Notes under the pieces: model-generated
Seen by the model: only the letters and a program-made list of their open reading frames with translations
Databases searched by the model: none
What the model was told of the DNA's origin: nothing
Made by a program: the position numbers and the translations under genes
Part shown: piece after piece, positions 12,927 to 63,755 of the stretch
Layout: the number at the start of each line of letters is the position of its first letter
How positions within the stretch are numbered: the stretch's first letter is position 1
Source of the DNA: a bacterium
GTDB lineage: Bacteria; UBA9089; JAHJRX01
Assembly: GCA_018830565.1 (NCBI GenBank)
Contig: JAHJRX010000043.1
Coordinates: 9,755 to 73,754, forward strand
Direction: 5' to 3'
Length of the DNA: 64,000 nt

Positions 12927-12927
12927 T

Positions 12928-13014
12928 AAAGCACTTATTAATGAAAATTTGACATAGAGCAAATTAATTTAACTCCAAACAAGTTTATCTTTTGTTACTC
13001 GGTATTATTTCCTT
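12928..13014 (-). repeat. MITE-like repeat, copy D (truncated at both ends)
   Basis: Matches the internal part of copy C. Bounded by the binding-protein gene 5' end and the stop of the J-domain gene. Confidence 0.65.
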
Positions 13015-29622: not shown

Positions 29623-29796
29623 TTCTATATTTCTCCTTACCGAGTATCTTCTTCGTCATCCAATAAACGTTCAGCTATCAGCTTTTAGTTTTTTAACTTA
29701 GAAAGAATCACTTGTTTTTTCATTTATTTCACCGCCTTTGCAGGATTTTCTCTTCCTTTTTGCTGGCAACTGACCGCTGACTGCTGACTATATTTC

Positions 29797-36442: not shown

Positions 36443-36499
36443 TTTTTAGTACCTCCATATCAGGTAAGGTAAGCGTTCAGCCGTCAGCTATCAGCAGTC

Positions 36500-36660
36500 A
36501 GAGAGAGCACCATTTCGAATTTCGAATTGCGAATTGCGAATCTGAAGAAACAGAACAGAATCTCAAATTGTGAATTGCATGGAGCACCCCTGGCAGAAAT
36601 TGCGAATCTGTTCCATTTCTACAGATTCACAATTCGAGATTCGAGATTCGCGATCTTACT
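36500..36660. repeat. hairpin-forming heptamer-periodic repeat element (AATTGCG units and inverse)
   Basis: cgaatttcgaattgcgaattgcgaatctg ... cagattcacaattcgagattcgagattcgcgat. The two arms are mutually complementary tandem 7-mers. Confidence 0.7.
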
Positions 36661-38162
36661 ATCACCATTGAAAAATAATTCAAATCCCCTGCCCTTACAT
36701 CCCTGATGTCCTTAAATATTGCCTCATCTTCCATTCCTGCCCTTGAGATATATGTTGCCCTATCCAGCATACCCATAGAGGTAAGGGCTTTTACAATATC
36801 GCCAAATACCTTGTGAACCTTCATAAGTATAACAGTATCAAATTGTTGCAGCGTTTTCTTCAAATTGTCTATTGTCAAGGGTGCTGCCGCATAATTTGCC
36901 GGGAGGATGGCAATCTTTTCATCAGCAAGACCAAGGGGTATCTTTAGCCTTGATGCGGCTGCAGTTATGGATGATACGCCAGGGATTATCTGAATATCCA
37001 TCCCAGACCTGAGTTCAAGCAGCCTATCGCAGATATAAAAGAATGTGCTGTAAAGGGTAGGGTCACCAAGTGTAATAAATGCCACATCCATTCCCTTATT
37101 AATCCTGTCAAGGATTGAGTCTGCTATCTTTTGCCATCCTGCATCCATCTCACAAGAGTCAGATGACAGATTTTTTTCTTCATCTGCCTCCTGCCTCCTT
37201 GTCTTTCTCATCGGGAAATATGCAGAGATAATCTCCTTGCCTTCAAGGTTCAATGCCCCCTCTACAATAGACAAGGCAAGGCTTTTGCCTTCTTCCCTGC
37301 CCATAGGAACACAGATACAGGAGACGCGATTAAGAATCCGTATTGCTTTCAGGGTCAATAATTCAGGATCCCCAGGTCCTACCCCTATAACAAAAAGGCT
37401 GGCTCTGGATTTTGTCTCAAGGGTTTGGTGTTTGGAACCAGAATTCTGAAGCTTGAGAATAACCACACTTGGTTCTGAAAAAGCCGCATCAATAAACCCT
37501 TGCGGTTTTCCCTCTACAACCCTTTCATCCTTGCAGCCTAATCTTTCACAAACATACATTGTTATTGGAAGGTTGTCGGTAAGGGGTGAGGTATCGAGTA
37601 TCTTTGCTATGACAGAAGGGGTAGTCATTCTGTCTGTAAGAATAGCCATCTTGTTGTGTTTTATAAGGAATGACGGCACATCCCGTATTCCATATCCAAG
37701 CCTTTTTGGGTCAGAGATTCCATGAAGACTCATCAGGAAGGCATCATCCCATGTCTCCCGTATCCTTGCAAATGCCGCCTGAATACTCGATAAATCAGGA
37801 AGTATCTCCACCATCTCCCTTCCAAACTCACCTATAATCTTCCTGCCAATCCCAAAGAACAACGGATCCCCGGAGCAAAGAATGGTAATGATTGCTGAGG
37901 GTTGGCAGGAAAGGGCAGAGCGAATGGCGTTGATAATTTTACCTACGGCTATCACTGTTACCTTGTCTTTGGGAAAATTGGGAAAATTACCGATATCCTC
38001 GTTTTTCAGCAGGACATCAAGAAGCCTGTCAGATGGGAGAATAATCATTGTTGAATTGCAAATTATCTCCCTTGCCCTTGCATCAAAGGGTCGATAACCA
38101 ATACCAATAAGATAGATTTTACCCATCATACCTTCCTTAAAATATATGTGTCCATCAGCCAA
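36627..38162 (-). CDS. fused corrin-ring methyltransferase (CbiE-like N-domain + CbiL/CobI-like C-domain)
   Basis: Two tetrapyrrole-methylase domains. The second starts LFVIGVGPGDPELLTLKAIRIL. Confidence 0.65.
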   Translation of the reverse strand: MADGHIYFKEGMMGKIYLIGIGYRPFDARAREIICNSTMIILPSDRLLDVLLKNEDIGNFPNFPKDKVTVIAVGKIINAIRSALSCQPSAIITILCSGDPLFFGIGRKIIGEFGREMVEILPDLSSIQAAFARIRETWDDAFLMSLHGISDPKRLGYGIRDVPSFLIKHNKMAILTDRMTTPSVIAKILDTSPLTDNLPITMYVCERLGCKDERVVEGKPQGFIDAAFSEPSVVILKLQNSGSKHQTLETKSRASLFVIGVGPGDPELLTLKAIRILNRVSCICVPMGREEGKSLALSIVEGALNLEGKEIISAYFPMRKTRRQEADEEKNLSSDSCEMDAGWQKIADSILDRINKGMDVAFITLGDPTLYSTFFYICDRLLELRSGMDIQIIPGVSSITAAASRLKIPLGLADEKIAILPANYAAAPLTIDNLKKTLQQFDTVILMKVHKVFGDIVKALTSMGMLDRATYISRAGMEDEAIFKDIRDVRAGDLNYFSMVIVRSRISNLEL

Positions 38163-40068: not shown

Positions 40069-40079
40069 AAAAGCCCTCT

Positions 40080-40130
40080 AACCGTTCAGCTATCAGCAGT
40101 CAGCGGATGAAGGCTGACACCTGAACGGTT
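40080..40130. repeat. hairpin repeat (aaccgttcag...ctgaacggtt) with CAGCNNN 7-nt periodic core
   Basis: 10-bp perfect stem. The core ctatcagcagtcagcgg recurs at 36470-36500, 42000-42025 and 42108-42135. Confidence 0.6.
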
Positions 40131-40235
40131 ACAAAGGATACCATAACATCATTGAAATATCAAGCAGAAAATATGATTTTTCAAGCAATGTGCAATTCCT
40201 TCTTAGGCATATAGTATCTACTCAATTATGATGGG

Positions 40236-40340
40236 GAAGGTCGGTAACCGGTAATCGGTAAATGGTAATCGGTAAGAGAAACAATTACCTGATTACCTGC
40301 TTACCCGATCACCCGATAACTGATTACCGATTACCACGAT
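40236..40340. repeat. hairpin of GGTAATC-type heptamer arrays
   Basis: ggtaaccggtaatcggtaaatggtaatcggtaag ... ttacccgatcacccgataactgattaccgattacc. Confidence 0.7.
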
Positions 40341-41225
40341 TTATTGAGAAGATACTGCATATAATCTTAATATCTCCCTTCTCGCCTCACCAATTGTGAG
40401 TGGGATTCTACCAAATGGAATATTATCCTCATGCTTCAATCTATAAATCAACTCTGCCATTTGAGGCAATCTTAGCCTTACATTCTCCATATCCTCCGGT
40501 GCGGTAAATACATCCTCAGGAGTGCCGCCTCTGACAATATGCCCCTTGCTCAAAATATAAAGCCTGTCAAGGAATAAAGGGACAAGGTCAACTGAGTGTG
40601 TCGCCATAACAATGGTAACGCCATTTTCCTTATTTAACCTTGTCAGGAGATTCATCATTTTATATTCACCCATTGGGTCAAGTCCGGCAGTCGGCTCATC
40701 AAGGAGCAATATCTCGTGTCCCATAGATAAAAGTCCGGCAATACATGCCCGTTTCTTTTGCCCAAAACTAAGATTGTGGATTGATTTTCCTGCATAATCG
40801 TCCATCTCAACAGCCTTTAGTGCCTCCTTAACACGGCTGATAACCTCATCTTCCGCAAACCCCATATTTATTGGTCCAAATGCCACATCCTCAAAGACGC
40901 TTGTAGCAAAGAGCTGGTCATCAGGGTTTTGAAAGACAAGCCCGATTTTTTTATATATCTCCTTTGGCGATAGCTTTTTAATGTTAACACCGTCAAGAAG
41001 GATATTTCCCTCAATATCTTTTAACAGTCCGTCTATTGCCTTTAGCAGGGTTGTTTTCCCTGAGCCGTTTGAGCCGAGAATGCCTGTAAACTCTCCCCTT
41101 TTTATCTCAAGGCTTATGTCAGACAAGGCTATTGTCCCATCCGGATATTTGAACGAGTTTATCTGAACAGACAATCTTCTGACTTCTGACTCCTGACTTC
41201 TGTATTCTGATTTCACATCTTCCAT
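40341..41225 (-). CDS. cbiO: energy-coupling factor transporter ATPase (CbiO/NikO-like)
   Basis: Walker A GSNGSGKTT, signature LSFGQKKR and Walker B LLLDEPTAGLD. The N-terminal ~20 aa (KSEYRSQESEVRRL) are encoded by CTGACTT-type heptamer repeats at 41177-41214. Confidence 0.85.
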   Translation of the reverse strand: MEDVKSEYRSQESEVRRLSVQINSFKYPDGTIALSDISLEIKRGEFTGILGSNGSGKTTLLKAIDGLLKDIEGNILLDGVNIKKLSPKEIYKKIGLVFQNPDDQLFATSVFEDVAFGPINMGFAEDEVISRVKEALKAVEMDDYAGKSIHNLSFGQKKRACIAGLLSMGHEILLLDEPTAGLDPMGEYKMMNLLTRLNKENGVTIVMATHSVDLVPLFLDRLYILSKGHIVRGGTPEDVFTAPEDMENVRLRLPQMAELIYRLKHEDNIPFGRIPLTIGEARREILRLYAVSSQ

Positions 41226-41980: not shown

Positions 41981-41997
41981 AATCTTTATAGGTAAGT

Positions 41998-42135
41998 ATT
42001 CAGCGGTCAGGTATCAGCACTCAGCCAGAACCAGGAAAATCAAACGCAAAGATGAACTCCACAATTTTACACTTTCTTGCTTTTCTGCTCTAACATCGCT
42101 AAAAATTGATACCTGACCGCTGATAGCTGAACGCT
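41998..42135. repeat. inverted pair of CAGCNNN-periodic repeat units
   Basis: ttcagcggtcaggtatcagcactcagcc ... cctgaccgctgatagctgaacgc. Confidence 0.6.
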
Positions 42136-42138
42136 TAC

Positions 42139-46228
<4,090 letters not shown>

Positions 46229-46257
<29 letters not shown>

Positions 46258-46567
46258 TCTTTAGCTGATATGCAATTCCAAGTCTCGTGCCTTCACCGCT
46301 TAGCTGCGTATCAGTTACCTTTTTCACCTTAATCTCTTTGCCCTTCTTGGTAATTATCTCTATCTGACCGTCAGCGGTCTTTTTGGTAATGGTTACCTCT
46401 GATTTTGGGTCCAGCAGGTCAACCATATCATAAGCCATAAATAAGGCAATCATCATGCTGACAATAAAGACTACGCTGGCGTCGAAAAGATTTGCCACTC
46501 CGGCAATAGGGTCCTCAAGCAGCTGTTCGTATTTTTCAAATCTTTTGTGTCTTTTCAAAAATCTCAT
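46229..46567 (-). CDS. DUF2149-like small membrane protein (ExbD/TolR-like topology)
   Basis: Single N-proximal TM (ANLFDASVVFIVSMMIALFMAY) followed by a soluble domain. Sits directly downstream of the ExbB-like gene. Confidence 0.55.
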
Positions 46568-46596
46568 GCTTAGCTCCTGATTTGTAATAGTTCAGC

Positions 46597-46768
46597 TAAC
46601 CGCAAAGGCGCAGAGACGCAGAGAAAAACTTAAAGTTTATTGGCTATACGCTTAATTCCATTCCTTAAGACAGAAATATTGAAATTGATCAATAGGCTGC
46701 ACCAAGAAAGTCTTTTTCCTGTGTCTGATTAATTTCCATACTCTGTGCCTCTGCGTCTCTGCGGTGAA
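46597..46768. repeat. long-range inverted repeat with CGCAGAG heptamer units
   Basis: ccgcaaaggcgcagagacgcagag ... ctctgtgcctctgcgtctctgcgg, about 120 bp apart. Confidence 0.6.
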
Positions 46769-46771
46769 CCA

Positions 46772-47326
46772 TTACCTTGATTTTACATCTGCATTTCGCA
46801 GCGTCAGCTCTGTAAGATATTCCATCTCCCTCATATCAGCTCTGAGCCATTTTTCTTTTACTATAGACATAAGATATGCGGCCACGCTACAGGCAAGTCC
46901 CACAACAACGGTTGTAAATGCAGTTACCATACTTCCAGCCATTTTAGGCATATCACCCTGTGCCATGGCAGAAAGGGCAATGCCCATAGGTATCAATGTC
47001 CCCATGAGACCAAGGGCAGGTCCAACCCGAATGGCAAATCTAACCCTATCCAATGATTTGACCAAATCAAGCTCTGCTGACTGAAGGAGTCTCTCCAGCT
47101 TGATGTCTAATTCCGCTGCCTTGTCTTTGCACTCACATTCAAGCATCAATTGATACCTGCGTAATGGCAGTGATATACCCTGCACCCTCTCGATATATTC
47201 ACGCAAGAATCCCCCAAACGAAATAACCATCCAGAATGTAAGCAAAGCAATCCCGGCAACCACCGGGTAAAAAAGGACAGAGGAGACGATATACAGATAT
47301 GTCTCAAGTCCCGCAAGAATATTCAT
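46772..47326 (-). CDS. MotA/TolQ/ExbB proton-channel family protein
   Basis: Three TM helices with conserved ...GPALGLMGTLIPMG... TM2/TM3 region. Confidence 0.85.
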   Translation of the reverse strand: MNILAGLETYLYIVSSVLFYPVVAGIALLTFWMVISFGGFLREYIERVQGISLPLRRYQLMLECECKDKAAELDIKLERLLQSAELDLVKSLDRVRFAIRVGPALGLMGTLIPMGIALSAMAQGDMPKMAGSMVTAFTTVVVGLACSVAAYLMSIVKEKWLRADMREMEYLTELTLRNADVKSR

Positions 47327-48024
47327 TGTTTAATCCCCCCTTGTGTTCTCTTTGCGAAAAACCCAATCAGCATTGCTGAAAAAAGCAGAGCAAATACCCC
47401 AATACTATTATTCAAATCAATATTGTTTGTCCCTGTTAGAAACGATCCGTATATCCCCTTTGCCTCTTCAATCTTTGGCGGTAGAACCAGTGTTGCAAGA
47501 AAATAAAGACCTATGCCTATCATACTCAGTCCAATGTTCACATTTGAATTACTGATGCAATTCATCCTTATCATGATAATGATAAGAAGGGTTAAAACAA
47601 CAAAGGATGTGCCAATGCACAATCCCACAACTGGTGCAGGGAGTTTAATCACATTTAATGCTGCCCATGTAGAAAAGGTTATAGCAGCAACGCAAACAGG
47701 GCAGGGAATCCACAGAAATATTGCAGAGTATTTAGAGCAATGCTTGTGCTTTGTATTGTGCAGTAGATATATCCCCCATATCATCAATCCTGTTGCCATC
47801 AGCATGTGAAGGTATGGACCCTTTCTTAACACAGGCTCAAACAACTGGAACAGGCGACCTGAAAATGTCGCGATAAGTACAAAGGCAGCAAGATAACACA
47901 AGAGAATCAAGACTATGCCTTTTTTCCTTAGCCCTCCAAACCCAAGCCCAAAGCCAACCTTAACAGCAAATATGCTTAAGGTAAAGAGCATTCCGCCAAT
48001 CCATAGAATAATGCTTAAATCCAT
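47323..48024 (-). CDS. polytopic membrane protein (DUF2162-like?)
   Basis: Six or seven hydrophobic helices. Translationally coupled to the exbB-like gene. DUF assignment is from memory of archaeal cobN neighbourhoods and is low confidence. Confidence 0.35.
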   Translation of the reverse strand: MDLSIILWIGGMLFTLSIFAVKVGFGLGFGGLRKKGIVLILLCYLAAFVLIATFSGRLFQLFEPVLRKGPYLHMLMATGLMIWGIYLLHNTKHKHCSKYSAIFLWIPCPVCVAAITFSTWAALNVIKLPAPVVGLCIGTSFVVLTLLIIIMIRMNCISNSNVNIGLSMIGIGLYFLATLVLPPKIEEAKGIYGSFLTGTNNIDLNNSIGVFALLFSAMLIGFFAKRTQGGIKQ

Positions 48025-48028
48025 GTTA

Positions 48029-48847
48029 TTATCCCTCTAACCTAAAGGCTATATTTACCCTTAGACTCAACTCCTCTCTCTTTAGTCCCTCTGGAATACA
48101 CAAAAATGGGCTTGCCTTCTTTACGCTCATGACAGCCTCATCATCCAGAATTTTGCAGCCTGATGAAGCGGCTATCTCAACATTCTTTAATCTTCCATCA
48201 TTAGAAATACAAAATTGAACCCTTACCACCCCTTCAATCTCTTTTCTTCTTGCAACCTGAGGGTATTTTTTATTTCTTTCTATCTTTGCCTTAACCTTAA
48301 CTGTATATTCCTGCAGCAAATTATCTTTAATAATCCCCTCTTGAGAGGGGTGGCTGCGAAGCAGACGGGGTGTGTTATCCCCTATAATCCGGGATTGTAA
48401 TGGTTCAATGCCCTGAAATTCTTCTGCACAGGGCATACCCTGAACAGCACAGCTTTCTGTAGGGCTCGGTCCCTGACCGAGCCTATTTTCTTCTACTGCC
48501 TGAGTTTCAGCCGCACATGTGAGTACATGAGGTGTATCAAGTAAGGTTTTAGACAGTACTTGTGGATCCAGCATCTCATTTGTCACAGCAGGACTTGAGG
48601 TTTCGGTCAATGTCTGTGGTATCTCCTTCGGCATAGGAGCTGCCTCTGTTTTATGTAATGCCTGCGTTCTATGCAGCTGGACATCTTTAGCATCAGCTTG
48701 CATGCCCTTATCGTCCAAATTTTCTAGTAGTGAAACCATTATCAATCTCTCGGTATTCTTTTGCACCTGATCAGGATTACTGAAAATATTTCCCATCGTA
48801 AAAAAAATGATGTGCAATAAAGCAGAGATGATGAGACTACGATTCAT
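48029..48847 (-). CDS. TonB-family energy transducer
   Basis: N-terminal TM, Pro-rich linker and a C-terminal TonB_C-like domain (KYPQVARRKEIEGVVRVQFCISNDGRLKNVEI). Confidence 0.7.
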   Translation of the reverse strand: MNRSLIISALLHIIFFTMGNIFSNPDQVQKNTERLIMVSLLENLDDKGMQADAKDVQLHRTQALHKTEAAPMPKEIPQTLTETSSPAVTNEMLDPQVLSKTLLDTPHVLTCAAETQAVEENRLGQGPSPTESCAVQGMPCAEEFQGIEPLQSRIIGDNTPRLLRSHPSQEGIIKDNLLQEYTVKVKAKIERNKKYPQVARRKEIEGVVRVQFCISNDGRLKNVEIAASSGCKILDDEAVMSVKKASPFLCIPEGLKREELSLRVNIAFRLEG

Positions 48848-48885
48848 CTTTTCCTTTTCCTTCTTGCTGCAATAATGCTACTCCT

Positions 48886-48955
48886 TCGGGGTTGCTTATT
48901 TTTTCCTTCCATCTTCTGTATTTAATCCCGAAGGAGTAGCATTATTATAGCATTC
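48886..48955. repeat. palindromic element AATAATGCTACTCCTTCGGGGTT / AATCCCGAAGGAGTAGCATTATT
   Basis: Perfect 23-bp arms. Related copies at 53160-53230 and 60098-60125. Confidence 0.65.
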
Positions 48956-53110: not shown

Positions 53111-53159
53111 TTAACACCTCCCTCCACAATAGCAATCTCTTCTTCGGTCAAGCCATAAA

Positions 53160-53230
53160 AGCTATAATAATGCCACCCCGTTGGGGTTGTGGTTTGCTTG
53201 TTAAACCCCGAAGGGGTGACATTATTGTAG
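53160..53230. repeat. palindromic element (same family as 48886-48955) immediately upstream of the NYN gene
   Basis: tataataatgccaccccgttggggttg ... aaccccgaaggggtgacattattgtag. Confidence 0.6.
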
Positions 53231-54144: not shown

Positions 54145-56112
54145 CTACAGTACCCCCTTGATACCTGCGACAATCTGTTCACGATTCAAATCCTCAAGCT
54201 CTAAATATTTTGCACCCATTGCCTCTGCTATCTCCAATGCCTTACTAAGACTAAGAAAGCCTTTTTCCGTATTAATCACTAAGGATCTTATCCCTGCCTC
54301 TTTTATCCTCAAGGCAATATCCTTTGCCTCTTCTATGGGCGATTTTGTCTTGTCTGTTCCTGCATTTGCCCTGCCATCTGTCAAAACTACCAGCAGGGGA
54401 TAACAATTTGTATCCCTTTTCTTCTCCTGCATTAACACCTCATACCCTCGTAACAATCCTTGTGGAAGCGGTGTTTTTCCGCCGGTTGGCAATTCCTTGA
54501 GCTTATCCTTTGCCATCTCTACACTCGATGTAGGTGGAAGTAGAAGTTCAGCCTGATTACCCTTAAAAGCTACCAGCCCTACCTTATCCCTTTTTTGATA
54601 GGCATCGATCAACAATGAAAGTATGGCACCCTTAGTTTCAACCATCCTTTGATTTGCACCCATAGAACCTGATGCATCAACCACAAACAGGATGGTATTA
54701 CCTATCTTTTTCTTTCTCACCTTTTGGCGAATATCCTCTTGCCTTATATTCAGGGCAACCCCATTTTTATCCCGATGTGCCTGATATGGTGATGCAGCCC
54801 TAAGGGTAGCATCAAAAGCCAGATCAGTGCATTTACCATCAGGCAGGGTGCTTCTTACATACCTGCCTGATTTAGAATCCGTGCAGGTGGTGCTTCGTCT
54901 GCCGGATGATGACCGAACATTACGATCCTGAGGCAGGATTATCCTCTGAACATTGTATGGTTCGCCTACCTCAAAATGTGTCTCTGTAGAGGCATCAGAG
55001 GATTGTCTTTCTGTCTGTTCATCCGATGGCGATTGGTCTTTTTTTTCCTGTTCCTGTTGTTGCTGCTGTTCTGTCTGTTGTTGTTGCTGCTTATGCTTAT
55101 TCATGGTTTCCTGTAGTTTTTCTGTATCCATCTTCTGTTCCTGAAACGGCTTTCTTCGCATACGGTGTGGCAGTACCAATTCTGCTGCCTCCTTCACATC
55201 ATCCTCAGTCACCTGTGTTCTGGAATGATACGCAGTCAATGTCTCTGCTGTTTTCATCATCACAATATCTGCCCGATGCCCGTCAACACCCATATCAACA
55301 GCAATTTGGGCAATCAAATTCAGCAGCTCATCAGCTATAGCCACCCTCTTCAACAACTCTTTTGCCTTTACTATTGTCTCTGAAAGTCGTTTTTCCTCTG
55401 CCTTCCATTCATGATAAAAGGAATGCGGATCCTGTTCATATCTTGCCCTGCGTTTGATAATCTCAACCCGCAGAGCAGTCTCCTTCACCCCCTCAATATC
55501 CACACACAACCCAAATCGGTCAACAATCTGGGGTCTTAGCTCACCCTCCTCAGGGTTCATGGTACCAACCAGCATAAAATGTGCCGGATGTGAAAACGAG
55601 ACACCTTCCCGTTCTACTATATTTACGCCCATAGCCGCAGAATCCAATAGAACATCCACCAGATGGTCATCCAACAGATTAACCTCATCAATATAGAGTA
55701 TTCCCCGATTAGCCGAAGCCAACACACCCGGTTCAAAGTGTTTTTCCCCTTTCTTGATTGCCTTCTCAATATCAAGGGTACCCACCACCCGGTCCTCGGT
55801 AGCCGATACCGGCAGATTAACCACCTTCATCTTCCGCTTGATAACCAATAAATCTTTATTCTGCCGGCAGCTTTCACACATCAGATGCACATCCCCTGGA
55901 CTGCAGCCAAAAGGGCAGTCTTCTACCACCTCAATCTCTGGCAGCAGATTGGCTAATGCCCTCACAGCAGTGGACTTAGCCGTCCCCTTCTCACCGCGGA
56001 TAAGCACACCGCCAATCCGTGGATTAATGGCTACCAATATAAGTGCCAGCTTCATCTTATCCTGACCAACTAATCCGGTAAATGGATAGACAGTATCTGC
56101 AAAACAACTCAT
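54145..56112 (-). CDS. Mg-chelatase-type ChlI/ChlD fusion protein (AAA+ ATPase + poly-Q/acidic linker + vWA/MIDAS)
   Basis: N-terminal [15 protein letters not shown] Walker A and ChlI-like AAA module. [15 protein letters not shown] linker. C-terminal vWA domain with MIDAS (DASGSM). Confidence 0.9.
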
Positions 56113-56118
56113 GTTATT

Positions 56119-59100
56119 TTATCCTCCCCATTTTGCCTTAATCTCCTGCATCTTAGCCCCCCAGTCAGCCACATCCTCGGCAGTCAGAATATCTATTGAG
56201 CCGCCCTGAAAGTCACCGGTTACATCGCCCATTTTTTCTTCAATCCAGCCCTCAATCTCAAGATATGCGTCCTTGAGTCCGGCTAAGACATCCGGATCAG
56301 CATCCCACAGACCACGCTGGTGGGCTTCCAACAGCCGGCGGCCGATTTCTTCTAATGCCCAGGGGTTATTTTCCTCAAAGAATTTTTTGTTCTCCTCATT
56401 CAGGACAAAGGTGCTGGTAATGTCATCGAATATCCAGTCATCTACCTCTTGAGTAGTTGCCTCCCAGCCATAAACCCTGCCAATGCGTTTGGATATATCA
56501 CCAGCCCCTTTGTAGCCATGTTGTTTCATCCCCTCAATCCATTTTGGATTGAGTAGTTTTGTTCGGACAACTCGTCTGACTTCATCTGCCATATCCCGAA
56601 CCTCAATATGCTCTGGCTCACGGGTATCACCATAGTATGTCCTGACCTCTTTACCGGATAGATGTCTTGCCGCAGCAGTCATCCCTCCATGTGTACCAAA
56701 GTAACCGCAGCAGCCAAACAAATCGTACTCATCGCTGACTACCTTATTGTAAGTTATATCTACACTCTTCAGATTATCAGCCAATTGTTTGTGTTTCTCC
56801 TCCCCAAATATCCCTTTACCGTAGGCATAGCCATTCCAATAAACAAAGACATCGGACAAGTCCTTTTCCTCCTTCCATGCTGAGGCATAGACGGCAAGTT
56901 GCGTTCCTGCCTGATATGTCCCGGGCTTTGAGGCAAAGACGCGAAGGGTGGCATTTCGCCAGGCATCTTTGTTTTCTTCGCTCTCTCCTGCCTCTGCTAT
57001 TTGAGCCAATGAATGCTTCCGCACAAAGTTCATCCGGGCCGGCTCCGGCAGGGAGGCCACGGCCTGAATAGCCTCATCAACAAGCTCCATACAGTTAGGG
57101 AAGTTGTCCCTGGTAATGCCTGAAACACGGATAGTAACATCTATTCGTGGTCTGCCCAATTCCTCAAGTGGAATAATATCAAATCCCTTTACCCTACCGT
57201 TTGGCTGCCAGAGAGGCTTTACCCCCAGGAGGTAAAATATTTGTGCCATGCCCTCGCCATCAGCCCACATAATATCCGAGCACTGCCAATAGATAGCAAC
57301 ATTCTCAGGGATTTTACCTTCTTCCTGCTTATGTTTTTTAATCACTGCATCAGCCAATTTCTGCCCTATCTGCCAGGCTGCCTTTGTTGGAATCCGATGA
57401 GGGTCAAGCGAATAAAAATTCCTGCCTGTTGGCAGAATATCATCCCTTCCGCGGGTAATCAACCCTGATGGACCAGGCAGGATATAGCCGCCGTCAAACC
57501 CATGCAGCAACGACTCAATCTCCTGAGATTCATCAATCCGCTTGTTCAAATCAACCAACCTTTCCTTGATTACCACAAGCGAGTCTATATATTCCACCTT
57601 CTTCAGCCTCTCACCAAGTATATCCTTAGCGAGCCTGTCCATGTCTTTTTCATCGATTGTCATCCTGCGGATAAATTCCCTGCAAAGGGTATTAATTTCC
57701 TCTAATAACTCCCCGTAAGCTTGATGGTGATGCGGACAAACCTTGCCGCTGTCTGCCAGCATATCAGACAGATTCATACCCATCATCCCGGCAACTATCT
57801 TTCGCAGCGAAACCTTTTCACCGGTGTCGTATCGCAAAATGGAGTTGATGAAGTCTAACCGCTTCTCACCTTCCGGCAACTGACCAAAGATATGCATCCC
57901 ATCCTGAATCTGGGTATTTCTGATTTTAGACAGGATACCATGGGTTGCCTGAACTATTTCACCAAAAGGTAATGAATGAACCTCTGAATCACCTAATTCG
58001 GCAAGCGATAATTTTTTAAATTCGCAATTCGCAATTCGCAATTCGCAATTAACTTTTATCTCTTTGTCCAGATTGGTCTTCTGGATGGCATCCATAATCA
58101 GATGCTGCAAGGCATGAGCCCGTCCATGGTCAATGTCCTTCAACTGTTCATACTCCCCCAAGAACCTGCCGAGCTCCTCCAACTCCTCATAAAGCCCGCC
58201 TTGGGTCATCACCGTTTGCATGTGGTCAACCAGGGTGGCATAGCTGCGACGCTTAGCAATGGTGCCCTCCGGGGGGTTATCCGCATTGTAGATGTAAAGG
58301 TGCGGGATGTCGCCAATCCCAATGTCCGGATAGCAATCACCAGACAGGGCAGTGCCTTTGCCGGGCAAGAATTCCAGGTTGCCGTGTGTGCCGACATGGA
58401 CAATCGCATCTACACCAAAATCGTATTCCAGATAACGATAAGTCGCCATATATTGATGTGGTGGAGGAATATCCGGATCATGTAGGATTTTGCAGACCTG
58501 TCCATCGCATCTTGCCCCGGCACAGCCACGCTTTGGCTGAACACAGACAACCGTATTCCCATACGCTACACCTGTAACTAATATTCGTCCATCGTAAACC
58601 ATAGCCGGCGGCACACCATTTACCTCCTCACCCGGTGGATTTCCCCATGCATCACACATCCGCTGCCTGACCATTGGTGAAAGGGTATTAAACCATTCCT
58701 CGTATTCCTCTTTGGTTACCTGCTTCAGCACACCACCCTTTTTGACTATCTCATCCGTAGTTGTCCAGCGAAACTCACTGATTGCCTTGCGGTCCATAAT
58801 CGTGGTGATAAGCTCCTTGCCGTCAGTTGGCGGCTCGACGGCATATCCCGCCTCTTTCATGCGATGCATTATTCGGGCAACACTTTCCAGGGTATCCAGA
58901 TGAGCACCCCCTCCTACCGTGGCTTCTACTGAGGCACAAGGGTTGTTGTTCAGGATAAAAGCCACCTTACGCTCGGCGACTGGCTTTTGTCGAAGCTTTA
59001 CCCAGTTAGCAATCCGGCGGACAACCTTACGGCACCGCTCCTCGATCGGCATCCGCTGTTGCAAGCCGCCCTTTTCATCACTTAAGCCACCAATGATAAA

Positions 59101-60081
59101 AGGCTCAATTACCCCCTCAAACTCAGGCATAGCAATACTCCAACCAACGCTGGTGCCTAATCCATGGGAGTCATTCTGCCACTCATCTATGGTTTTGTAA
59201 TAAGAGGTTATGGGTGAGAACACCGGCACATCAAGCCTTTTTAGTATCTCCACCCCACTGGAAGCAACCTCCTTGTCGTCAAAATCTTTCCCCTGTGTAT
59301 TACCTATGAAGAAATTCTGGAGCTTGATAAGGGCATCAATTCGTGGTGTTCCATCCTCACGCAGGAAATATTCACAAACCACCTCACCGCTCCCCTTGCA
59401 GCCTTGTTCTTCATTCTTGACTGAGTACGAAAATGCCGGGATGACATTCAAACCCAATGCCTCTAATTCACGAATAAGGGCATCTTCAACCTCAAGATTG
59501 TTATTTACCCAGTAGTGGCGGGAAAAAAGGATACCGACAGTAGGAATTTTGGATTGCGAATTGCGAATTGCGGATTTATGAAGATGATACCAATTCAGGT
59601 ATTCCTCAATAGTGCCAAAGATTGATGGGGCATCCGGGTGATACAGCCCTTCCCATGGCACATGTTTTGGCTCTGCCGCCGATAGATCAAGCCCAACAAC
59701 CTCATGGGCAATATATTTCAGCATATTGGTGAAATTTTCCTCACCACCAATTATTATATAGGAATAAGTTTTGGCAGCAACCTCCGGTTTAACGGTAGAA
59801 AGCATCCAGTAGGACGGGTCATATCCAATACAGACAATAGGAATCTTTTTGCCTATCTCCTGTAGCTTTGCCTCAATCGTCTCCCAAAAACCCTCGCTTG
59901 AGCGATAGAGAAGAATGGCATCAGCCTTCGCTGCCTCCTCAAGCACTGCCTCAAGAATATCCGGCTCATCAGCAAGTTTTTTGGCAGAATAAGCCTTAAG
60001 CTCAACTGATTCGGCAACATTTTTGCTTGCCTTGACAAGCATATTTAGATGGCTGTGCCACATAATAGCGACTATTCGCAT
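56119..60081 (-). CDS. cobN: cobaltochelatase CobN-family large subunit, paralog 2 (canonical, no signal peptide)
   Basis: 1320 aa with CobN blocks throughout. Partnered with the ChlI/ChlD gene immediately downstream. Contains two in-frame AATTGCG heptamer insertions (58021-58049 encoding NCELRIANCEF; 59557-59580 encoding SAIRNSQS). Confidence 0.9.
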   Translation of the reverse strand: MRIVAIMWHSHLNMLVKASKNVAESVELKAYSAKKLADEPDILEAVLEEAAKADAILLYRSSEGFWETIEAKLQEIGKKIPIVCIGYDPSYWMLSTVKPEVAAKTYSYIIIGGEENFTNMLKYIAHEVVGLDLSAAEPKHVPWEGLYHPDAPSIFGTIEEYLNWYHLHKSAIRNSQSKIPTVGILFSRHYWVNNNLEVEDALIRELEALGLNVIPAFSYSVKNEEQGCKGSGEVVCEYFLREDGTPRIDALIKLQNFFIGNTQGKDFDDKEVASSGVEILKRLDVPVFSPITSYYKTIDEWQNDSHGLGTSVGWSIAMPEFEGVIEPFIIGGLSDEKGGLQQRMPIEERCRKVVRRIANWVKLRQKPVAERKVAFILNNNPCASVEATVGGGAHLDTLESVARIMHRMKEAGYAVEPPTDGKELITTIMDRKAISEFRWTTTDEIVKKGGVLKQVTKEEYEEWFNTLSPMVRQRMCDAWGNPPGEEVNGVPPAMVYDGRILVTGVAYGNTVVCVQPKRGCAGARCDGQVCKILHDPDIPPPHQYMATYRYLEYDFGVDAIVHVGTHGNLEFLPGKGTALSGDCYPDIGIGDIPHLYIYNADNPPEGTIAKRRSYATLVDHMQTVMTQGGLYEELEELGRFLGEYEQLKDIDHGRAHALQHLIMDAIQKTNLDKEIKVNCELRIANCEFKKLSLAELGDSEVHSLPFGEIVQATHGILSKIRNTQIQDGMHIFGQLPEGEKRLDFINSILRYDTGEKVSLRKIVAGMMGMNLSDMLADSGKVCPHHHQAYGELLEEINTLCREFIRRMTIDEKDMDRLAKDILGERLKKVEYIDSLVVIKERLVDLNKRIDESQEIESLLHGFDGGYILPGPSGLITRGRDDILPTGRNFYSLDPHRIPTKAAWQIGQKLADAVIKKHKQEEGKIPENVAIYWQCSDIMWADGEGMAQIFYLLGVKPLWQPNGRVKGFDIIPLEELGRPRIDVTIRVSGITRDNFPNCMELVDEAIQAVASLPEPARMNFVRKHSLAQIAEAGESEENKDAWRNATLRVFASKPGTYQAGTQLAVYASAWKEEKDLSDVFVYWNGYAYGKGIFGEEKHKQLADNLKSVDITYNKVVSDEYDLFGCCGYFGTHGGMTAAARHLSGKEVRTYYGDTREPEHIEVRDMADEVRRVVRTKLLNPKWIEGMKQHGYKGAGDISKRIGRVYGWEATTQEVDDWIFDDITSTFVLNEENKKFFEENNPWALEEIGRRLLEAHQRGLWDADPDVLAGLKDAYLEIEGWIEEKMGDVTGDFQGGSIDILTAEDVADWGAKMQEIKAKWGG

Positions 60082-60187
60082 AAAAATACCTCCCTCTATA
60101 ATAATGCCGCCTTGTTGGGGTTACAGGGATACTATCCCCCTTGTCTTCCTGCATTCACAGGGGCAGGCTCTGTCCGTGAAGGCAAGC

Positions 60188-60220
60188 AGACTTCCGAAGT
60201 TTTCAAAACTTCGGAAGTCT
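60188..60220 (-). terminator. perfect 16-bp palindrome downstream of the TonB-dependent receptor gene
   Basis: agacttccgaagtttt/caaaacttcggaagtct. Confidence 0.45.
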
Positions 60221-62612: not shown

Positions 62613-63755
62613 TTACAGATGCTCCTTTCCGGCTTTATTTGGTTTTTCAGCAATAAGTATCCTCCAGCAGTATCCACCAATAAATCCTCCAACCGTACCT
62701 GCAAGGAGAAAGACAAAAAGGAGCAGGTCGCCTTGATCGGTATTAATAATTGGCTGCCTTGCCTCTCTGCCATGCTCTGCGGCGTATTTTTCAACAACCG
62801 ATTCATCAACCCCGCTCCATTTAGATTCTTTTGCAAATGCAGGGGTAGAAAATAACAAGGACAGAAGGGTTAAGAGGATTAACAAGGGTGTGGTTATGTT
62901 CTGACTTCTGTATTCTGTCTTCTGTCTTCCATCTTCTGTCTTCTGACTTCTGTCTCCTATATTCTGACTCCTATATTCTGACTTCTGAATTCTGACTTCC
63001 ATTTTCACTACCCCCAATTTCATAAGCATATCCGGCCTCTTTTTGTAAAGCAGCACAATCATGCCTGCTGTCATAGCCCCCTCAAGGATTCCCAATGGAA
63101 GCTGTGTTGGGATGAAGGCAATGAGTATCTTCCAGAAAAGCGGTAAGAATGGTGAATCCCCCCTTATGCCTGAGGCAAGTTCAATGGATGTAGTGGTATA
63201 TGTTGCCCAATCTGCAAGCAGTCCTGCCGCAAAGCCTGCAATCCAGAGGTTAGCCTTTAACGCCCTCAATCCCTTGAAGGTTAAATATCCTGCAAATGAG
63301 CCCATCACACCCATGGAGACAATATCCGCACCCCAGGTACTCAAACCACCGTGAGCAAGGAAGAGGGCTTGAATAAGAAGAGCCGCGGCTGAGACAAGTA
63401 TGCTGACATAAGGGCCAAGTAATATCCCTGATATGCCTGTCCCGCACGGATGGGAACATGTGCCTGCAGTCGGTACTGGTATGGGCATACAAGAGATAAT
63501 GAAAACCACTGCGGCCATTAATCCTATGAGTGGCTTGAACGATAGGTCAACACTTGAGAGTTTCTTCACCTTGTACAACCCAAATGCCACAAATGGCATG
63601 GCAATAGCAAGCCAGAAAACTGCCCAATTGAGCGGCAGTATCCCCTCTGAGATGTGCATGGCATGGGCATTGTTCCTAATCAATAAAAACCCAATGGTTA
63701 AGAGCAATCCTGCAAACAATCTGTCTCTCATCTTAATGTTTCGTTTATTTTGCAT
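62613..63755 (-). CDS. cbiMN: CbiM-CbiN fusion (ECF-type Co/Ni uptake substrate component); MHISEG follows a predicted signal peptide
   Basis: CbiM core (AHA|MHISEGILP..., ~220 aa, seven TM helices). A 35-aa low-complexity linker (EYRSQNIGDRSQKTEDGRQKTEYRSQNI) is encoded entirely by CTGACTT/CTGTCTT heptamer repeats. A C-terminal CbiN-like two-TM module follows. Confidence 0.8.
   Translation of the reverse strand: MQNKRNIKMRDRLFAGLLLTIGFLLIRNNAHAMHISEGILPLNWAVFWLAIAMPFVAFGLYKVKKLSSVDLSFKPLIGLMAAVVFIISCMPIPVPTAGTCSHPCGTGISGILLGPYVSILVSAAALLIQALFLAHGGLSTWGADIVSMGVMGSFAGYLTFKGLRALKANLWIAGFAAGLLADWATYTTTSIELASGIRGDSPFLPLFWKILIAFIPTQLPLGILEGAMTAGMIVLLYKKRPDMLMKLGVVKMEVRIQKSEYRSQNIGDRSQKTEDGRQKTEYRSQNITTPLLILLTLLSLLFSTPAFAKESKWSGVDESVVEKYAAEHGREARQPIINTDQGDLLLFVFLLAGTVGGFIGGYCWRILIAEKPNKAGKEHL
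62899..63000. repeat. heptamer tandem array inside the cbiMN ORF (encodes the inter-domain linker)
   Basis: ttctgacttctgtattctgtcttctgtcttccatcttctgtcttctgacttctgtctcctatattctgactcc... Confidence 0.75.

Follow-up and report, generated by a model that had tools for sequence, protein, structure and literature searches.

Spacer hairpins with 7-nt-phased arms in a cobN locus are probably IS66-derived MITEs, with related arrays read as protein segments

Introduction

Tandem repeats with a period of 7 nt crowd the second half of the 64-kb stretch of DNA analysed here (the window), where they occur both in spacers and inside the open reading frames of a cobN-containing gene cluster. The initial annotation of this locus described them as hairpin-forming units that are tolerated in frame and proposed that slippage might make the chelatase and transport genes phase-variable. 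The transposon nature of the spacer hairpins, with their IS66-type ends and 8-bp target duplications, was missing from that annotation. The locus raises the question of where such arrays come from and whether they act as switches. We find that the hairpin-forming elements represent one state and the in-frame arrays another. It is probable that the spacer hairpins are non-autonomous MITEs from an IS66-family insertion sequence; related arrays are read as protein segments.

Results

Period-7 arrays are concentrated in one island

We located the period-7 arrays with Tandem Repeats Finder and our own self-match scans of the window (Table 1). At a threshold of at least 12 self-matches in 14, the region from 34 to 64 kb contains 12 period-7 arrays covering 417 nt, compared with 0–2 for periods 8–12 in the same region and a single period-7 array in the first 34 kb of the window, confirming the strong enrichment in the second half that had been described. 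Exact arrays of at least 2.5 copies number 10 for period 7 and 0 for periods 8–14, and tandem MTYCTGA is matched 14 times in the window against 0.47 expected. Every array but one lies in a 30-kb island with a GC content of 0.41–0.48, surrounded by a backbone of 0.30–0.36. As initially reported, the same units recur in spacers and in ORFs.

Table 1. Heptamer arrays and hairpin elements in the window
Positions	Strand	Feature	Ends, units or product	Fold z-score
29663–29790	.	Decayed family copy; low-GC backbone, outside island	ATAAACGTTCAGCTATCAGC ... CTGACCGCTGACTGCTGAC
36469–36659	.	Composite element; spacer arrays 36511–36543/36630–36655	Left end GTAAGCGTTCAGC + three nnTCAGC heptamers; right end ...GATCTTAC; interior AATTGCG-type hairpin, 36508–36657	−7.3
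40078–40132	.	Mini-element, 55 nt	Both IS66-type ends, CTAACCGTTCAGC ... CCTGAACGGTTAC	−7.2
40236–40340	.	Hairpin directly after cbiO stop codon; spacer arrays 40241–40275/40284–40340		−5.7
41175–41214	−	cbiQ/cbiO array, at overlap of cbiQ stop and cbiO start
41992–42138	.	MITE, 147 nt	GTAAGTATTCAGC / GTAAGCGTTCAGC; nnTCAG heptamer arms	−5.5
42357–42427	−	CobN-like tail array	Sense TCGGCAG, about 9 copies; 21 protein letters
46112–46226	−	Complete heptamer-arm hairpin, 5' coding end of secreted CobN-like gene; arrays 46115–46150/46168–46223		−4.2
46584–46775	.	MITE, 192 nt; spacer arrays 46601–46624/46741–46763	GTAATAGTTCAGC / GTAATGGTTCACC; inner CGCAGAG arrays	−5.2
58017–58053	−	cobN loop-2 array	Sense GCGAATT, 4.6 perfect copies; VNCELRIANCEFKK, CobN residues about 676–689	−2.6
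59550–59577	−	cobN loop-1 array	Sense TCGCAAT, 3.4 copies; KSAIRNSQSK, residues about 168–178	−0.7, no local structure
62899–62999	−	CbiM–CbiN linker array	~14 degenerate units, sense GAAGTCA/GAATTCA/GGAGTCA...	−0.01, no fold

Spacer hairpins have IS66-type ends

The hairpin elements form long folds, with z-scores between −4.2 and −7.3, and several of those in spacers terminate in GTAAGCGTTCAGC...GCTGAACGCTTAC. The proposal that the arrays pair into hairpins in spacers thus holds for the spacer elements, but one of the pairs so assigned, at 46112–46226, falls within the CobN-like ORF, in its 5' coding end. The end motif GTAASCGTTCAGS is matched 10 times in the window against 1.9 expected, and 7 of these matches are at the ends of hairpin elements. 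Hairpins built from quite different units still terminate in GTAAG...CTTA(C/T), and an element in another locus (L120) is nearly all one expanded array between ends of this type.

A methylase gene (36627–38162) takes its final ~9 codons (RSRISNLEL) and its stop codon from an arm of 36469–36659, and the terminal GTAA of 46584–46775 supplies the TAA stop codon of the gene at 46772–47326. The latter element is bordered by a 7/8 direct repeat, CCTGATTT and CTTGATTT, which we read as its target duplication, and intact relatives with the same nested CGCAGAG arrays are found in L109 and L170. The MITE at 41992–42138, which has the modal length of the family, lies directly past the CobN-like gene's stop codon; neither there nor at 40078–40132 did we find a recognisable target duplication. 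The arms of 40236–40340 consist of the tandem terminal heptamer itself (GTAACCG GTAATCG GTAAATG GTAATCG...). This hairpin is missing from the orthologous spacer of L085. In L085 the site orthologous to 40078–40132 is occupied by a composite of 279 nt whose ends match those of the mini-element.

Scanning metagenomes with the end motif recovered at least 120 loci; because they were chosen by that motif, they speak only for arrays with such ends and give no estimate of heptamer arrays elsewhere. At least 38 complete elements of 86–247 nt (mode 147 nt) were obtained, with arms of the form GTAAGCGTTCAGC(nnTCAGC)x3 and, for the 38 listed, the consensus GTAAGCGTTCAGCnnTCAGCnnTCAGCnnTCAGC. All 38 listed copies are intergenic, 11 of them lying no more than 15 nt from the 3' end of an ORF. 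Perfect 8-bp direct repeats flank 16 of the 41 paired-end candidates listed, with about 10 more matching at 7 of 8 positions, and the listed loci include multicopy sets with a conserved interior, among them two copies in L131. A 1,512-nt element with the same ends (L163) codes for a protein in which DDE_Tnp_IS66 (E 1e-30) and zf-IS66 domains were recognised; no IS66 transposase gene was found within the 64-kb window. Element ends, target duplications, multicopy dispersal and a cognate transposase are established by these observations. Published IS66 terminal inverted repeats begin GTAAGCG and are accompanied by 8-bp direct repeats (PMC11946415), and published ends of the family include GTAAGCGTCC... 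and GTAACCGTCC... (PMC12888890). The combination of GTAAGCG ends with 8-bp duplications therefore points to MITEs of IS66 origin whose arms are phased at 7 nt. When the arms of one element are compared, the variable nn positions agree at 27% (chance 25%) and the conserved positions at 79%, which indicates that the phased motif is kept rather than base pairing. A non-exhaustive literature search found no description of a MITE family with arms phased in this way.

Coding arrays are insertions at permissive sites

Arrays within ORFs occur only at permissive positions: two CobN loops, the linker between CbiM and CbiN, the N-terminus of CbiO and, in the CobN-like protein, the signal peptide and the tail linker. 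Their status as insertions, which had been suspected, is borne out by alignments of CobN, CbiMN, CbiO and CobN-like proteins: orthologues have gaps or unrelated segments at these hypervariable sites, and so do not carry the same peptides without the periodicity. Other lineages either have no array or have different units at the same site. The idea that the arrays form hairpins within ORFs does not hold, because, with the exception of 46112–46226, they are single arms with z-scores of +0.24 to −3.6 and no notable hairpins.

The two cobN arrays, initially described as identical units, are both present but are oppositely oriented: the + strand reads AATTCGC at 58019–58050 and ATTGCGA at 59553–59576, the loop-1 unit being the reverse complement of the loop-2 unit. 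Loop 2 is hypervariable in length among orthologues, and the M. tuberculosis CobN structure (7c6o) has a gap where the array aligns; GATTGCG units occupy the site in L006, and copy number is the same in L001 and L086. Loop 1 ranges from 0 to 25 aa in orthologues and holds other heptamer arrays in L004, L005 and L010 (CAGAGGT, GTCGGAG, CTCAAAA). With its array the CbiM–CbiN linker reaches ~36 aa, compared with 0–20 aa in relatives. The array had been credited with the whole linker, but the fusion is ancestral (Geobacter and others) and only the extra length is added; in L086 the array has equal length and 9 substitutions.

The array at 41175–41214 supplies the cbiQ TGA stop codon and gives the CbiO N-terminus a net 33 nt (VKSEYRSQESEV, in place of one Ile codon), in agreement with the extension first proposed; the L085 orthologue lacks this insert. 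The hairpin at 46112–46226 begins right after the DUF2149 stop codon, and its 5' arm codes for the charged n-region of a signal peptide (19 protein letters) and its 3' arm (ATTCTGG units) for the hydrophobic core (12 protein letters). The equivalent place in L085 has CAGGGGT and ATTCTRC arrays (FCILHSTFCIL). In the tail of the CobN-like protein, the CTGCCGA array recognised at the outset lies in the linker joining the CobN-like domain to a C-terminal membrane anchor, and most of 45 orthologues encode this linker with arrays (ESGVRSQ, EDRGQKTD and similar). Neither a MITE terminus nor a duplication was found at the arrays inside cobN, at the cbiMN linker or at the CobN-like tail; their derivation from MITE arms is suggested by shared units and a weak resemblance (GTTAATTGCGAATT vs GTAAGATCGCGAAT).

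Alternative explanations

The contig is a short-read metagenome assembly whose GC content shifts sharply at ~34 kb, as might be expected of an assembly artefact or chimerism in repetitive DNA. The probability of this is negligible: the same arrays are present in five independent assemblies (ERZ27247117 in ENA, which is the window itself, ERZ27247128, GCA_018823665.1, GCA_018818825.1 and Logan SRR6514730), the island is bordered by the same low-GC backbone in L082 and L086, and every ORF remains open through its array. It is also very unlikely that the arrays are contingency repeats, retained because slippage by a single unit turns the chelatase and transport genes off and on. In favour of this reading, 7 is not divisible by 3, so that a one-unit change would cause a frameshift; the cobN loop-2 array is perfect; and one array has more homogeneous units than would be expected from its L006 orthologue, which shows that units do turn over across long times. 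However, we found no copy-number change at 11 or more array sites with 0–7% flanking divergence, mostly in one strain pair per site and between consensus assemblies, in which low-frequency slippage within a population would escape detection. An orthologue with 94% aa identity (P0241) has identical array peptides, and no frameshifted alleles occur among 9 CobN cluster members, all 9 being full length. The arrays have few copies (3–5) or are degenerate, as most coding arrays are (72–88% matches), they occupy mid-gene or linker positions in metabolic genes, and the TonB-dependent outer-membrane receptor of the cluster carries none. What turns over between near-identical strains is whole elements, gained or lost: between cobN and chlD, L001 and L086 have a spacer element of ~130 nt, with a GTAACCGTTCAG end and CAGGAGT/CAGAATT arrays, that the window lacks. 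The arrays are therefore stable in length over evolutionary time, and a role as phase-variation switches is not supported.

The coding arrays could instead be ordinary SSRs that arose in situ by polymerase slippage in unconstrained loops, unrelated to the spacer hairpins, with the shared units reflecting a heptamer mutational bias. Among longer SSRs, heptanucleotides are reported to be the commonest class in many bacteria (Mrazek 2007, as quoted in PMC4679880 and PMC4692102), and coding arrays that are single-armed, do not fold and lack MITE ends or target duplications would fit this origin. We nevertheless consider it rather unlikely, because period-7 arrays are rare elsewhere (21 in all in 1.19 Mb of cobN loci of other lineages) and concentrated in relatives that also carry the MITEs, and because units in ORFs match nearby MITE arms (AATTGCG with 36469–36659; CGCAGAG/CACAGAG with 46584–46775) or the L001 element (CAGGAGT/CAGAATT). 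Moreover, several coding arrays lie exactly at the stop/start junctions where MITEs insert, and one coding case, 46112–46226, is a full two-armed hairpin. Selection by the host for regulatory sites (IHF/HU-like) or intercistronic mRNA stabilisers is an unlikely reason for the paired arrays, even though the hairpins lie inside the operon right after stop codons, have strong predicted folds and, in 6/6 cases, have sense RNA that is more stable than the antisense, with more G–U pairs. In the 3' arm of 46112–46226, CTGG replaces CTGA, which removes stops and keeps G–U pairing, and regulator binding has been proposed for MTYCTGA pairs (Aklujkar 2009, PMC2700814). However, the strand asymmetry could be compositional, reflecting a G-rich coding strand, no hairpin is followed by a T-run or matches Rfam, and there is no co-variation between the arms at their variable positions. 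Whole elements come and go, orthologous spacers contain different elements, and the 8-bp target duplications together with a cognate transposase show spread by transposition.

Discussion

If the spacer hairpins are MITEs that descend from an insertion sequence of the IS66 family, each arm would combine an IS66-type terminus (GTAAGCG/GTAACCG) with a pentamer (TCAGC or a variant) every 7 nt. An IS66-family DDE transposase encoded elsewhere would mobilise the elements in trans, with 8-bp target duplications at AT-rich sites, which in a compact operon would be mostly the few bases around stop codons. The 7-nt phasing would be a property of the transposon end, and probably reflects reiterated binding sites, with the transposase presumably recognising the phased pentamers. 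Amplification, shrinkage and homogenisation of the phased units in 7-nt steps over evolutionary time would produce the many unit variants (AATTGCG, CTGACTT, GGTAATC, CGCAGAG). An arm would be read through where genes abut or overlap, or where it enters a loop or linker, and we infer that internal single-arm arrays such as those of the cobN loops derive from MITE arms in this way. The surviving coding versions would be stop-free and of a total length divisible by 3, and would become neutral or mildly useful peptides such as linkers, N- or C-terminal tails and even a signal-peptide core. Transcribed spacer copies would fold and may affect mRNA decay or translational coupling, like REP elements, should they have a role at the RNA level.

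Phase-variable SSRs, such as the contingency tetranucleotides of Haemophilus and the heptanucleotide repeats that precede the hmw adhesin genes, resemble the arrays here in having a unit indivisible by 3 in or beside genes. The arrays here differ in lacking copy-number polymorphism between strains, in their short or degenerate tracts, in lying in metabolic and transport genes and in being fixed in frame.

The cyanobacterial STRR heptamers, the TAACTGA repeats of Beggiatoaceae (MacGregor 2015, PMC4679880) and the GGGAATC/GGGGAYT heptamers known from Xanthomonas and Nostoc (Rehm 2015, PMC4692102) are likewise tandem heptanucleotides, mostly intergenic near start or stop codons, some overlapping ORF ends, with ORF orientation limited by stop codons. 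They are mainly direct repeats without a complementary arm, have other unit sequences and are not known as transposon ends. The likeness to STRRs initially drawn is valid only as an analogy; neither unit sequences nor host group match. On the opposite strand TAACTGA reads TTATCAG, which is an nnnTCAG unit as here, a likeness of unit sequence only. Geobacter metallireducens has class 3 paired sites of five MTYCTGA units on opposite strands and elements of four GGACCGG units within and between genes (Aklujkar 2009, PMC2700814). Compared by description, the window shares opposite-strand pairs at variable distance, intragenic copies and units that fit MTYCTGA (CTTCTGA, ATTCTGA, CTCCTGA), but the G. 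metallireducens sites were read as sites for global regulators (IHF/HU), with no transposon ends or target duplications reported.

MITEs are a known kind of element, and in-frame selfish DNA is known from Rickettsia, whose palindromic elements are selfish hairpin repeats lying in frame in genes (Ogata et al. 2000, 2002, as quoted in PMC5896051), at tolerated protein positions as here. Coxiella QMITEs overlap gene 3' ends and provide C-terminal residues and stops, as do 36469–36659 and 46584–46775. Unlike these elements of obligate intracellular bacteria, those described here occur in free-living anaerobes, belong to an unrelated sequence family with 7-nt-periodic units, and have coding copies of which most are single arms or bare arrays and not complete palindromes. 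With IS66-family insertion sequences and IS-derived MITEs the elements share GTAAGCG/GTAACCG termini, 8-bp target duplications, an autonomous relative with a DDE_Tnp_IS66 and zf-IS66 transposase, and small, non-coding, multicopy derivatives. IS66 inverted repeats as quoted in PMC11946415 and PMC12888890 are 15–24 bp long without internal periodicity, whereas the arms here extend over 35–45 nt with a pentamer every 7 nt and arrays expandable to 5–14 copies.

Period-7 arrays in a cobalamin and cobalt island

Tandem Repeats Finder and a self-match scan agreed in placing heptamer arrays where the initial annotation had reported them. The self-match scan found 12 period-7 arrays, covering 417 nt, between 34 and 64 kb, against 0-2 for periods 8-12, and only one period-7 array in the first 34 kb. 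When only exact arrays with 2.5 or more copies were counted, ten had period 7 and none had periods 8-14. Such arrays are rare in other lineages, with 21 in 1.19 Mb of cobN loci, and cluster mainly in the closest relatives of the island, which carry the labels Desantisbacteria or Nitrospirota. No exact match was found for the window CobN or for the protein P0373. The arrays comprise 3-5 copies or are degenerate with 72-88% matches, and in the genes for the chelatase, the ECF transporter and the methylase they occupy mid-gene positions, linkers or tails.

All genes of the array region lie on the minus strand and form a cobalamin and cobalt-uptake cluster that comprises a cbiM-cbiN fusion and genes for a TonB-dependent receptor, cobN, a chlD-like protein, ABC transporters, ExbB/DUF2162/DUF2149 proteins, a secreted CobN-like protein, cbiQ, cbiO and corrin methylases. 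Because this 30-kb island has a GC content of 0.41-0.48 and is flanked on both sides by backbone DNA of 0.30-0.36, the cluster was probably acquired horizontally. The compositional island spans 34150-64000 of the window, which is contained in ENA contig ERZ27247117 k141_336465, and in locus L082 it runs on to about 64250. The close strain L084 departs from the window past 33616, where it has a Cas_TM1802 gene. Positions 42139-48847 hold a conserved module of TonB-like, DUF2162, MotA/ExbB and DUF2149 proteins and the secreted, C-terminally anchored CobN-like protein (~1360 aa), whose conserved MCRN/MYRN start is overlapped by the stop codon of DUF2149; the module looks like an envelope-located, chelatase-like system for the uptake of metal or corrinoid.

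Repeat features of the window (window coordinates unless a locus is named; TRF, Tandem Repeats Finder)
Feature	Position	Size or copies	Remarks
Candidate MITE, decayed copy	29663-29790		in backbone
Candidate MITE, composite element	36469-36659		
Period-7 arrays, spacer and methylase end	36512-36541, 36632-36654		TRF
Candidate MITE, mini-copy	40078-40132	55 nt	no target duplication found
Period-7 array after cbiO	40241-40275		TRF
Period-7 array, cbiO 5' end	41176-41214		TRF
Candidate MITE copy	41992-42138	147 nt	no target duplication found
Period-7 array, CobN-like tail	42360-42420		TRF
Period-7 arrays, CobN-like 5' end	46117-46150, 46168-46218		TRF
Candidate MITE copy	46584-46775		nested CGCAGAG arrays; 7/8 duplication, CCTGATTT and CTTGATTT
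cobN array	58019-58050	4.6 perfect copies	TRF; AATTCGC on the plus strand
cobN array	59553-59576		TRF; ATTGCGA on the plus strand
cbiM-cbiN linker array	62899-62999	14.4 copies	TRF
MTYCTGA arrays	41176-41210; 46130-46150(-)/46170-46204(+); 62933-62995		
CCCC-TTCG-GGGG family	48865-48952, 53111-53221, 60082-60130; L085 5431-6263; L006 3459-3478		

Spacer hairpins as putative IS66-derived MITEs

Several hairpins that begin right after stop codons have in common the end motif GTAASCGTTCAGS, which has ten matches in the window against 1.9 expected, seven of them at element ends. The IS66-type end of the heptamer hairpins is also written GTAASCGTTCAG, and ends of the GTAAGCG/GTAACCG type, arranged as inverted repeats, occur in the window at 36469, 40078, 40120(-), 41992, 42126(-), 46584 and 46775(-). 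IS66-family elements have terminal inverted repeats of 20-30 bp beginning GTAAGCG and 8-bp duplications (PMC11946415), with ends such as GTAAGCGTCC... and GTAACCGTCC... (PMC12888890). The termini GTAAG...CTTA(C/T) are kept even in hairpins built from other units, and the hairpin at 40236-40340 consists of tandem copies of the terminal heptamer GTAAnCG.

Scanning metagenome contigs with GTAANCGTTCAGNNNTCAG returned at least 120 loci, including at least 38 complete two-ended elements that are 86-247 nt long, most often 147 nt; the consensus of 38 copies is GTAAGCGTTCAGC nnTCAGC nnTCAGC nnTCAGC. Perfect 8-bp direct repeats flank 16 of the 41 paired-end candidates among the matches listed, a set in which the island is represented by its elements of 55 nt and 279 nt, and about ten more have repeats matching at seven of eight positions. 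Target sites of the elements with duplications are AT-rich. A 147-nt subfamily with a conserved interior occurs on at least eight contigs, twice in L131. The elements are thus small (55-280 nt), non-coding, multicopy and dispersed, as MITEs are. An autonomous element of 1512 nt in locus L163, GTAAGCGTTCAG...CTGAACGCTTAC, has the same type of end, and its ORF encodes DDE_Tnp_IS66 (E 1.2e-30) and zf-IS66 domains; no IS66 transposase is encoded within the window or its island. Taken together, the ends, the 8-bp duplications, the multicopy dispersal and the cognate transposase indicate that the heptamer hairpins are IS66-derived MITEs. Strains that are 98-99% identical differ in whether they carry certain whole elements, which is indirect evidence for mobilisation by a putative transposase.

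All 38 complete metagenomic copies among the matches listed are intergenic, and 11 of these 38 lie within 15 nt of the 3' end of an ORF. The window hairpins likewise start at, or a few bases from, stop codons, and the gene upstream of the element at 46584-46775 ends in a TAA stop codon provided by the terminal GTAA of that element. Where genes overlap (DUF2149/CobN-like and cbiQ/cbiO), a site just after a stop codon falls inside the downstream ORF, which accounts for array-coded N-termini.

Comparison of the two arms in the 38 copies gave 79% agreement at the conserved positions and 27% at the variable dinucleotides, for which chance is 25%. Hence both ends preserve a pentamer that recurs with a 7-nt phase; base pairing is not preserved. 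The phased pentamers may be reiterated transposase-binding sites. That arm units can expand is clear: L120 is nearly all one array with IS66-type ends on either side, L085 has a nested composite of 279 nt in place of the 55-nt window copy, and the ~130-nt element of the close strains L001 and L086 has CAGGAGT/CAGAATT arrays beside a GTAACCGTTCAG end.

Arrays within coding sequences

The initial annotation took the coding arrays to be insertions, and this was borne out by orthologues of CobN, CbiMN, CbiO and the CobN-like protein, which lack the segments or have other ones in their place. Its description of the repeats as hairpin-forming held for the spacer elements, whose long-hairpin folds have z-scores of -4.2 to -7.3, but not for the arrays within ORFs, which are single arms with no unusual folding (z +0.24 to -3.6). 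The hairpin that it assigned to a spacer at 46117-46222 in fact lies within the CobN-like gene, in its 5' coding end (46112-46226). AATTGCG-type cobN units are open in all three frames of both orientations; for units that contain CTGA only one orientation is readable, since TGA arises in the other.

In an alignment of 40 CobN orthologues, both arrays fall in loops of 0 to ~25 residues, and at loop 2 the solved structure of Mycobacterium tuberculosis CobN shows a gap. The same loops contain other units at other loci, namely CAGAGGT x5 (L004), GTCGGAG (L005), CTCAAAA (L010) and GATTGCG (L006). At the loop-2 site, the window has AATTGCG x4.6 (58017-58053) and L006 has GATTGCG x3 (3450-3505), which indicates that the units evolve in concert while the reading frame is kept. 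The A/G change is identical in every unit. An in-frame insertion of a 20-nt palindrome is also present in L006. This CCCAC-TTCG-GTGGG copy, within the loop-2 array, belongs to a second palindrome family, a CCCC-TTCG-GGGG stem-loop found in spacers upstream of genes and often followed by a GGCATTATTATAG-like box. Shared units, together with the weak resemblance of the loop-2 flank GTTAATTGCGAATT to the MITE end GTAAGATCGCGAAT, suggest that the internal cobN arrays may derive from MITE arms. The two cobN arrays, 1.5 kb apart, are reverse complements of each other; we considered long-range pairing between them and rejected it, as L006 lacks that complementarity.

The CbiM-CbiN linker is ~36 aa long in the window and 0-20 aa elsewhere. 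The array did not create the fusion, which is widespread without it and ancestral, occurring in Geobacter and many others. In CbiO, the array codes for a net insertion of 33 nt (11 codons), VKSEYRSQESEV, that the L085 orthologue lacks, and it also supplies the stop codon of cbiQ. A GAAGAT repeat at this insert, examined as a possible target duplication, proved to be coding sequence shared by homology. The stretch from the conserved start (MCRN/MYRN) to the signal-peptide core of the secreted CobN-like protein is array-coded in most of 45 orthologues, with peptides that include ESGVRSQ, SEVRSQK and EDRGQKTD, and the same holds for the linker preceding the C-terminal membrane anchor. The hydrophobic core is encoded by ATTCTGG units in the window, and its counterpart in L085, FCILHSTFCIL, by ATTCTRC units. 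The methylase gene at 36627-38162 takes its last nine codons and its stop codon from a hairpin arm. In L085, whose island is 80% identical, a fused corrin methylase (12247-13710) has four arrays (GGGATAC, CCTTCAG x5, AAATTCG x6 and CAGGAGG) in loops and an inter-domain linker. The poly-Gln/Glu linker of the ChlD-like protein (55048-55091) comes from CTGTTGCTG, an ordinary 9-nt repeat that stays in frame and has no relation to the heptamers.

Array stability between strains

The initial annotation had proposed that slippage at the heptamers could produce phase variation. This mechanism is not supported by the comparison of consensus assemblies between strains, in which no array indel relative to the window was found in L084, L001, L086 or L083. 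Over the 19 kb in which L084 shares 97.5% identity with the window, in a mosaic pattern of divergence, it has no indel at any of ~10 arrays and hairpins. Both cobN arrays are unchanged in L001 and L086, whose cobN is 98% identical, and the array peptides are identical in P0241, an orthologue with 94% amino acid identity. All nine members of the CobN cluster are full length. The cbiMN linker of L086 keeps its length despite nine substitutions; the 7-aa difference of L086 CbiMN, which could be read as slippage of three units, reflects only start-codon calling. Nor do the arrays show the hallmark of contingency loci, in which a surface or contingency gene has a long and perfect tract close to its 5' end or promoter. 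Homogenisation within arrays, AATTGCG in the window and GATTGCG in L006, implies that units do turn over across longer distances, with only frame-preserving outcomes seen. On these comparisons, the arrays behave as exonised selfish DNA apparently under purifying selection for frame, unlike a contingency locus.

Whole spacer elements do differ. The cobN-chlD spacer holds a ~130-nt hairpin element in L001 and L086 and is 6 nt long in the window; no clean target duplication was found around the L001 insertion. The element in the tonB-cobN spacer of these two strains also differs from that of the window. A perfect 16+16-nt palindrome in this spacer of the window (60188-60220, AGACTTCCGAAGTTTT / AAAACTTCGGAAGTCT) is replaced in both strains by a CAGCnnn-heptamer arm. 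Comparison of L086 with the window places a recombination breakpoint near 62940 in the cbiMN linker, and this array may be a recombination junction. Across 62893-62940, identity falls from ~99.6% to ~93% at the breakpoint inside the array.

Possible RNA-level effects

For all six heptamer hairpins, the predicted sense fold is more stable than the antisense fold and has more G-U pairs. In the 3' arm of the 46112-46226 hairpin, CTGG takes the place of CTGA, so that stop codons are lost and wobble pairing is kept. By analogy with REP elements, the asymmetry could reflect a role in mRNA stabilisation or translational coupling. It could equally be a consequence of the G-rich coding strand, which makes it weak evidence for such a role. 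Because none of the heptamer hairpins is followed by a T-run in a consensus terminator scan, they are not canonical intrinsic terminators. At the Rfam gathering threshold, no hairpin was matched and no cobalamin riboswitch was found in the window. The sole Rfam match in the window is a bacterial large SRP RNA (RF01854, 20493-20758, 161.6 bits).

Interpretation and implications

We consider it likely that the best explanation of the arrays is a family of IS66-derived MITEs with 7-nt-phased arms, whose arrays would have become part of coding sequence where insertion is tolerated. A free-living bacterium would thereby have turned selfish DNA into a signal-peptide core, the linker of a fused ECF transporter, chelatase surface loops and stop codons taken from transposon ends. 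This reading also gives repeats earlier termed 'putative regulator sites' or 'heptamer SSRs' a concrete, testable origin, as the termini of a widespread MITE family derived from IS66. For annotation, the arrays carry the risk of spurious low-complexity 'hypothetical proteins' and, in MAGs, of shifted start and stop calls. They may also serve as markers of recombination and insertion hot-spots within operons, and heptamer arrays should not be taken for phase-variation switches without population data.

A more general proposal, which we regard as rather improbable, is that IS66-type MITE arms are a source of the heptanucleotide-repeat excess in many bacteria and raw material for new protein segments, their phasing reflecting cooperative transposase binding. 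The segments may include signal-peptide cores, inter-domain linkers and N- or C-terminal tails, and the proposal would extend to the MTYCTGA pairs of Geobacter and possibly to TAACTGA (= TTATCAG) of Beggiatoaceae and cyanobacteria. To our knowledge, cooperative binding of transposase to reiterated subterminal sites has been described mainly for eukaryotic transposons, Ac/Ds and En/Spm.

Comparison with known systems

The class-3 pairs of Geobacter metallireducens, about five tandem MTYCTGA units on opposite strands at variable distance, have been interpreted as regulator sites (PMC2700814). The window arrays fit this description, as judged against the published consensus; tandem MTYCTGA has 14 matches in the window against 0.47 expected. 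Heptanucleotide elements inside genes are likewise described for G. metallireducens.

The likeness to cyanobacterial STRR sequences drawn in the initial annotation is a fair analogy, as it is for the TAACTGA and GGGAATC heptamer repeats, but goes no further. STRR units are CCCCAGT, TTGGTCA and CAACAGT and belong to heterocystous cyanobacteria, whereas the units here are nnnTCAG, AATTGCG, GTAAnCG and CGCAGAG and the host is a low-GC bacterium.

Rickettsia palindromic elements and Coxiella QMITEs are unrelated in sequence, and the arrays are not members of the former. Like the Rickettsia elements, however, the arrays lie in frame at tolerated sites, with orthologues that lack them, and like QMITEs they appear to be selfish DNA carried in frame.
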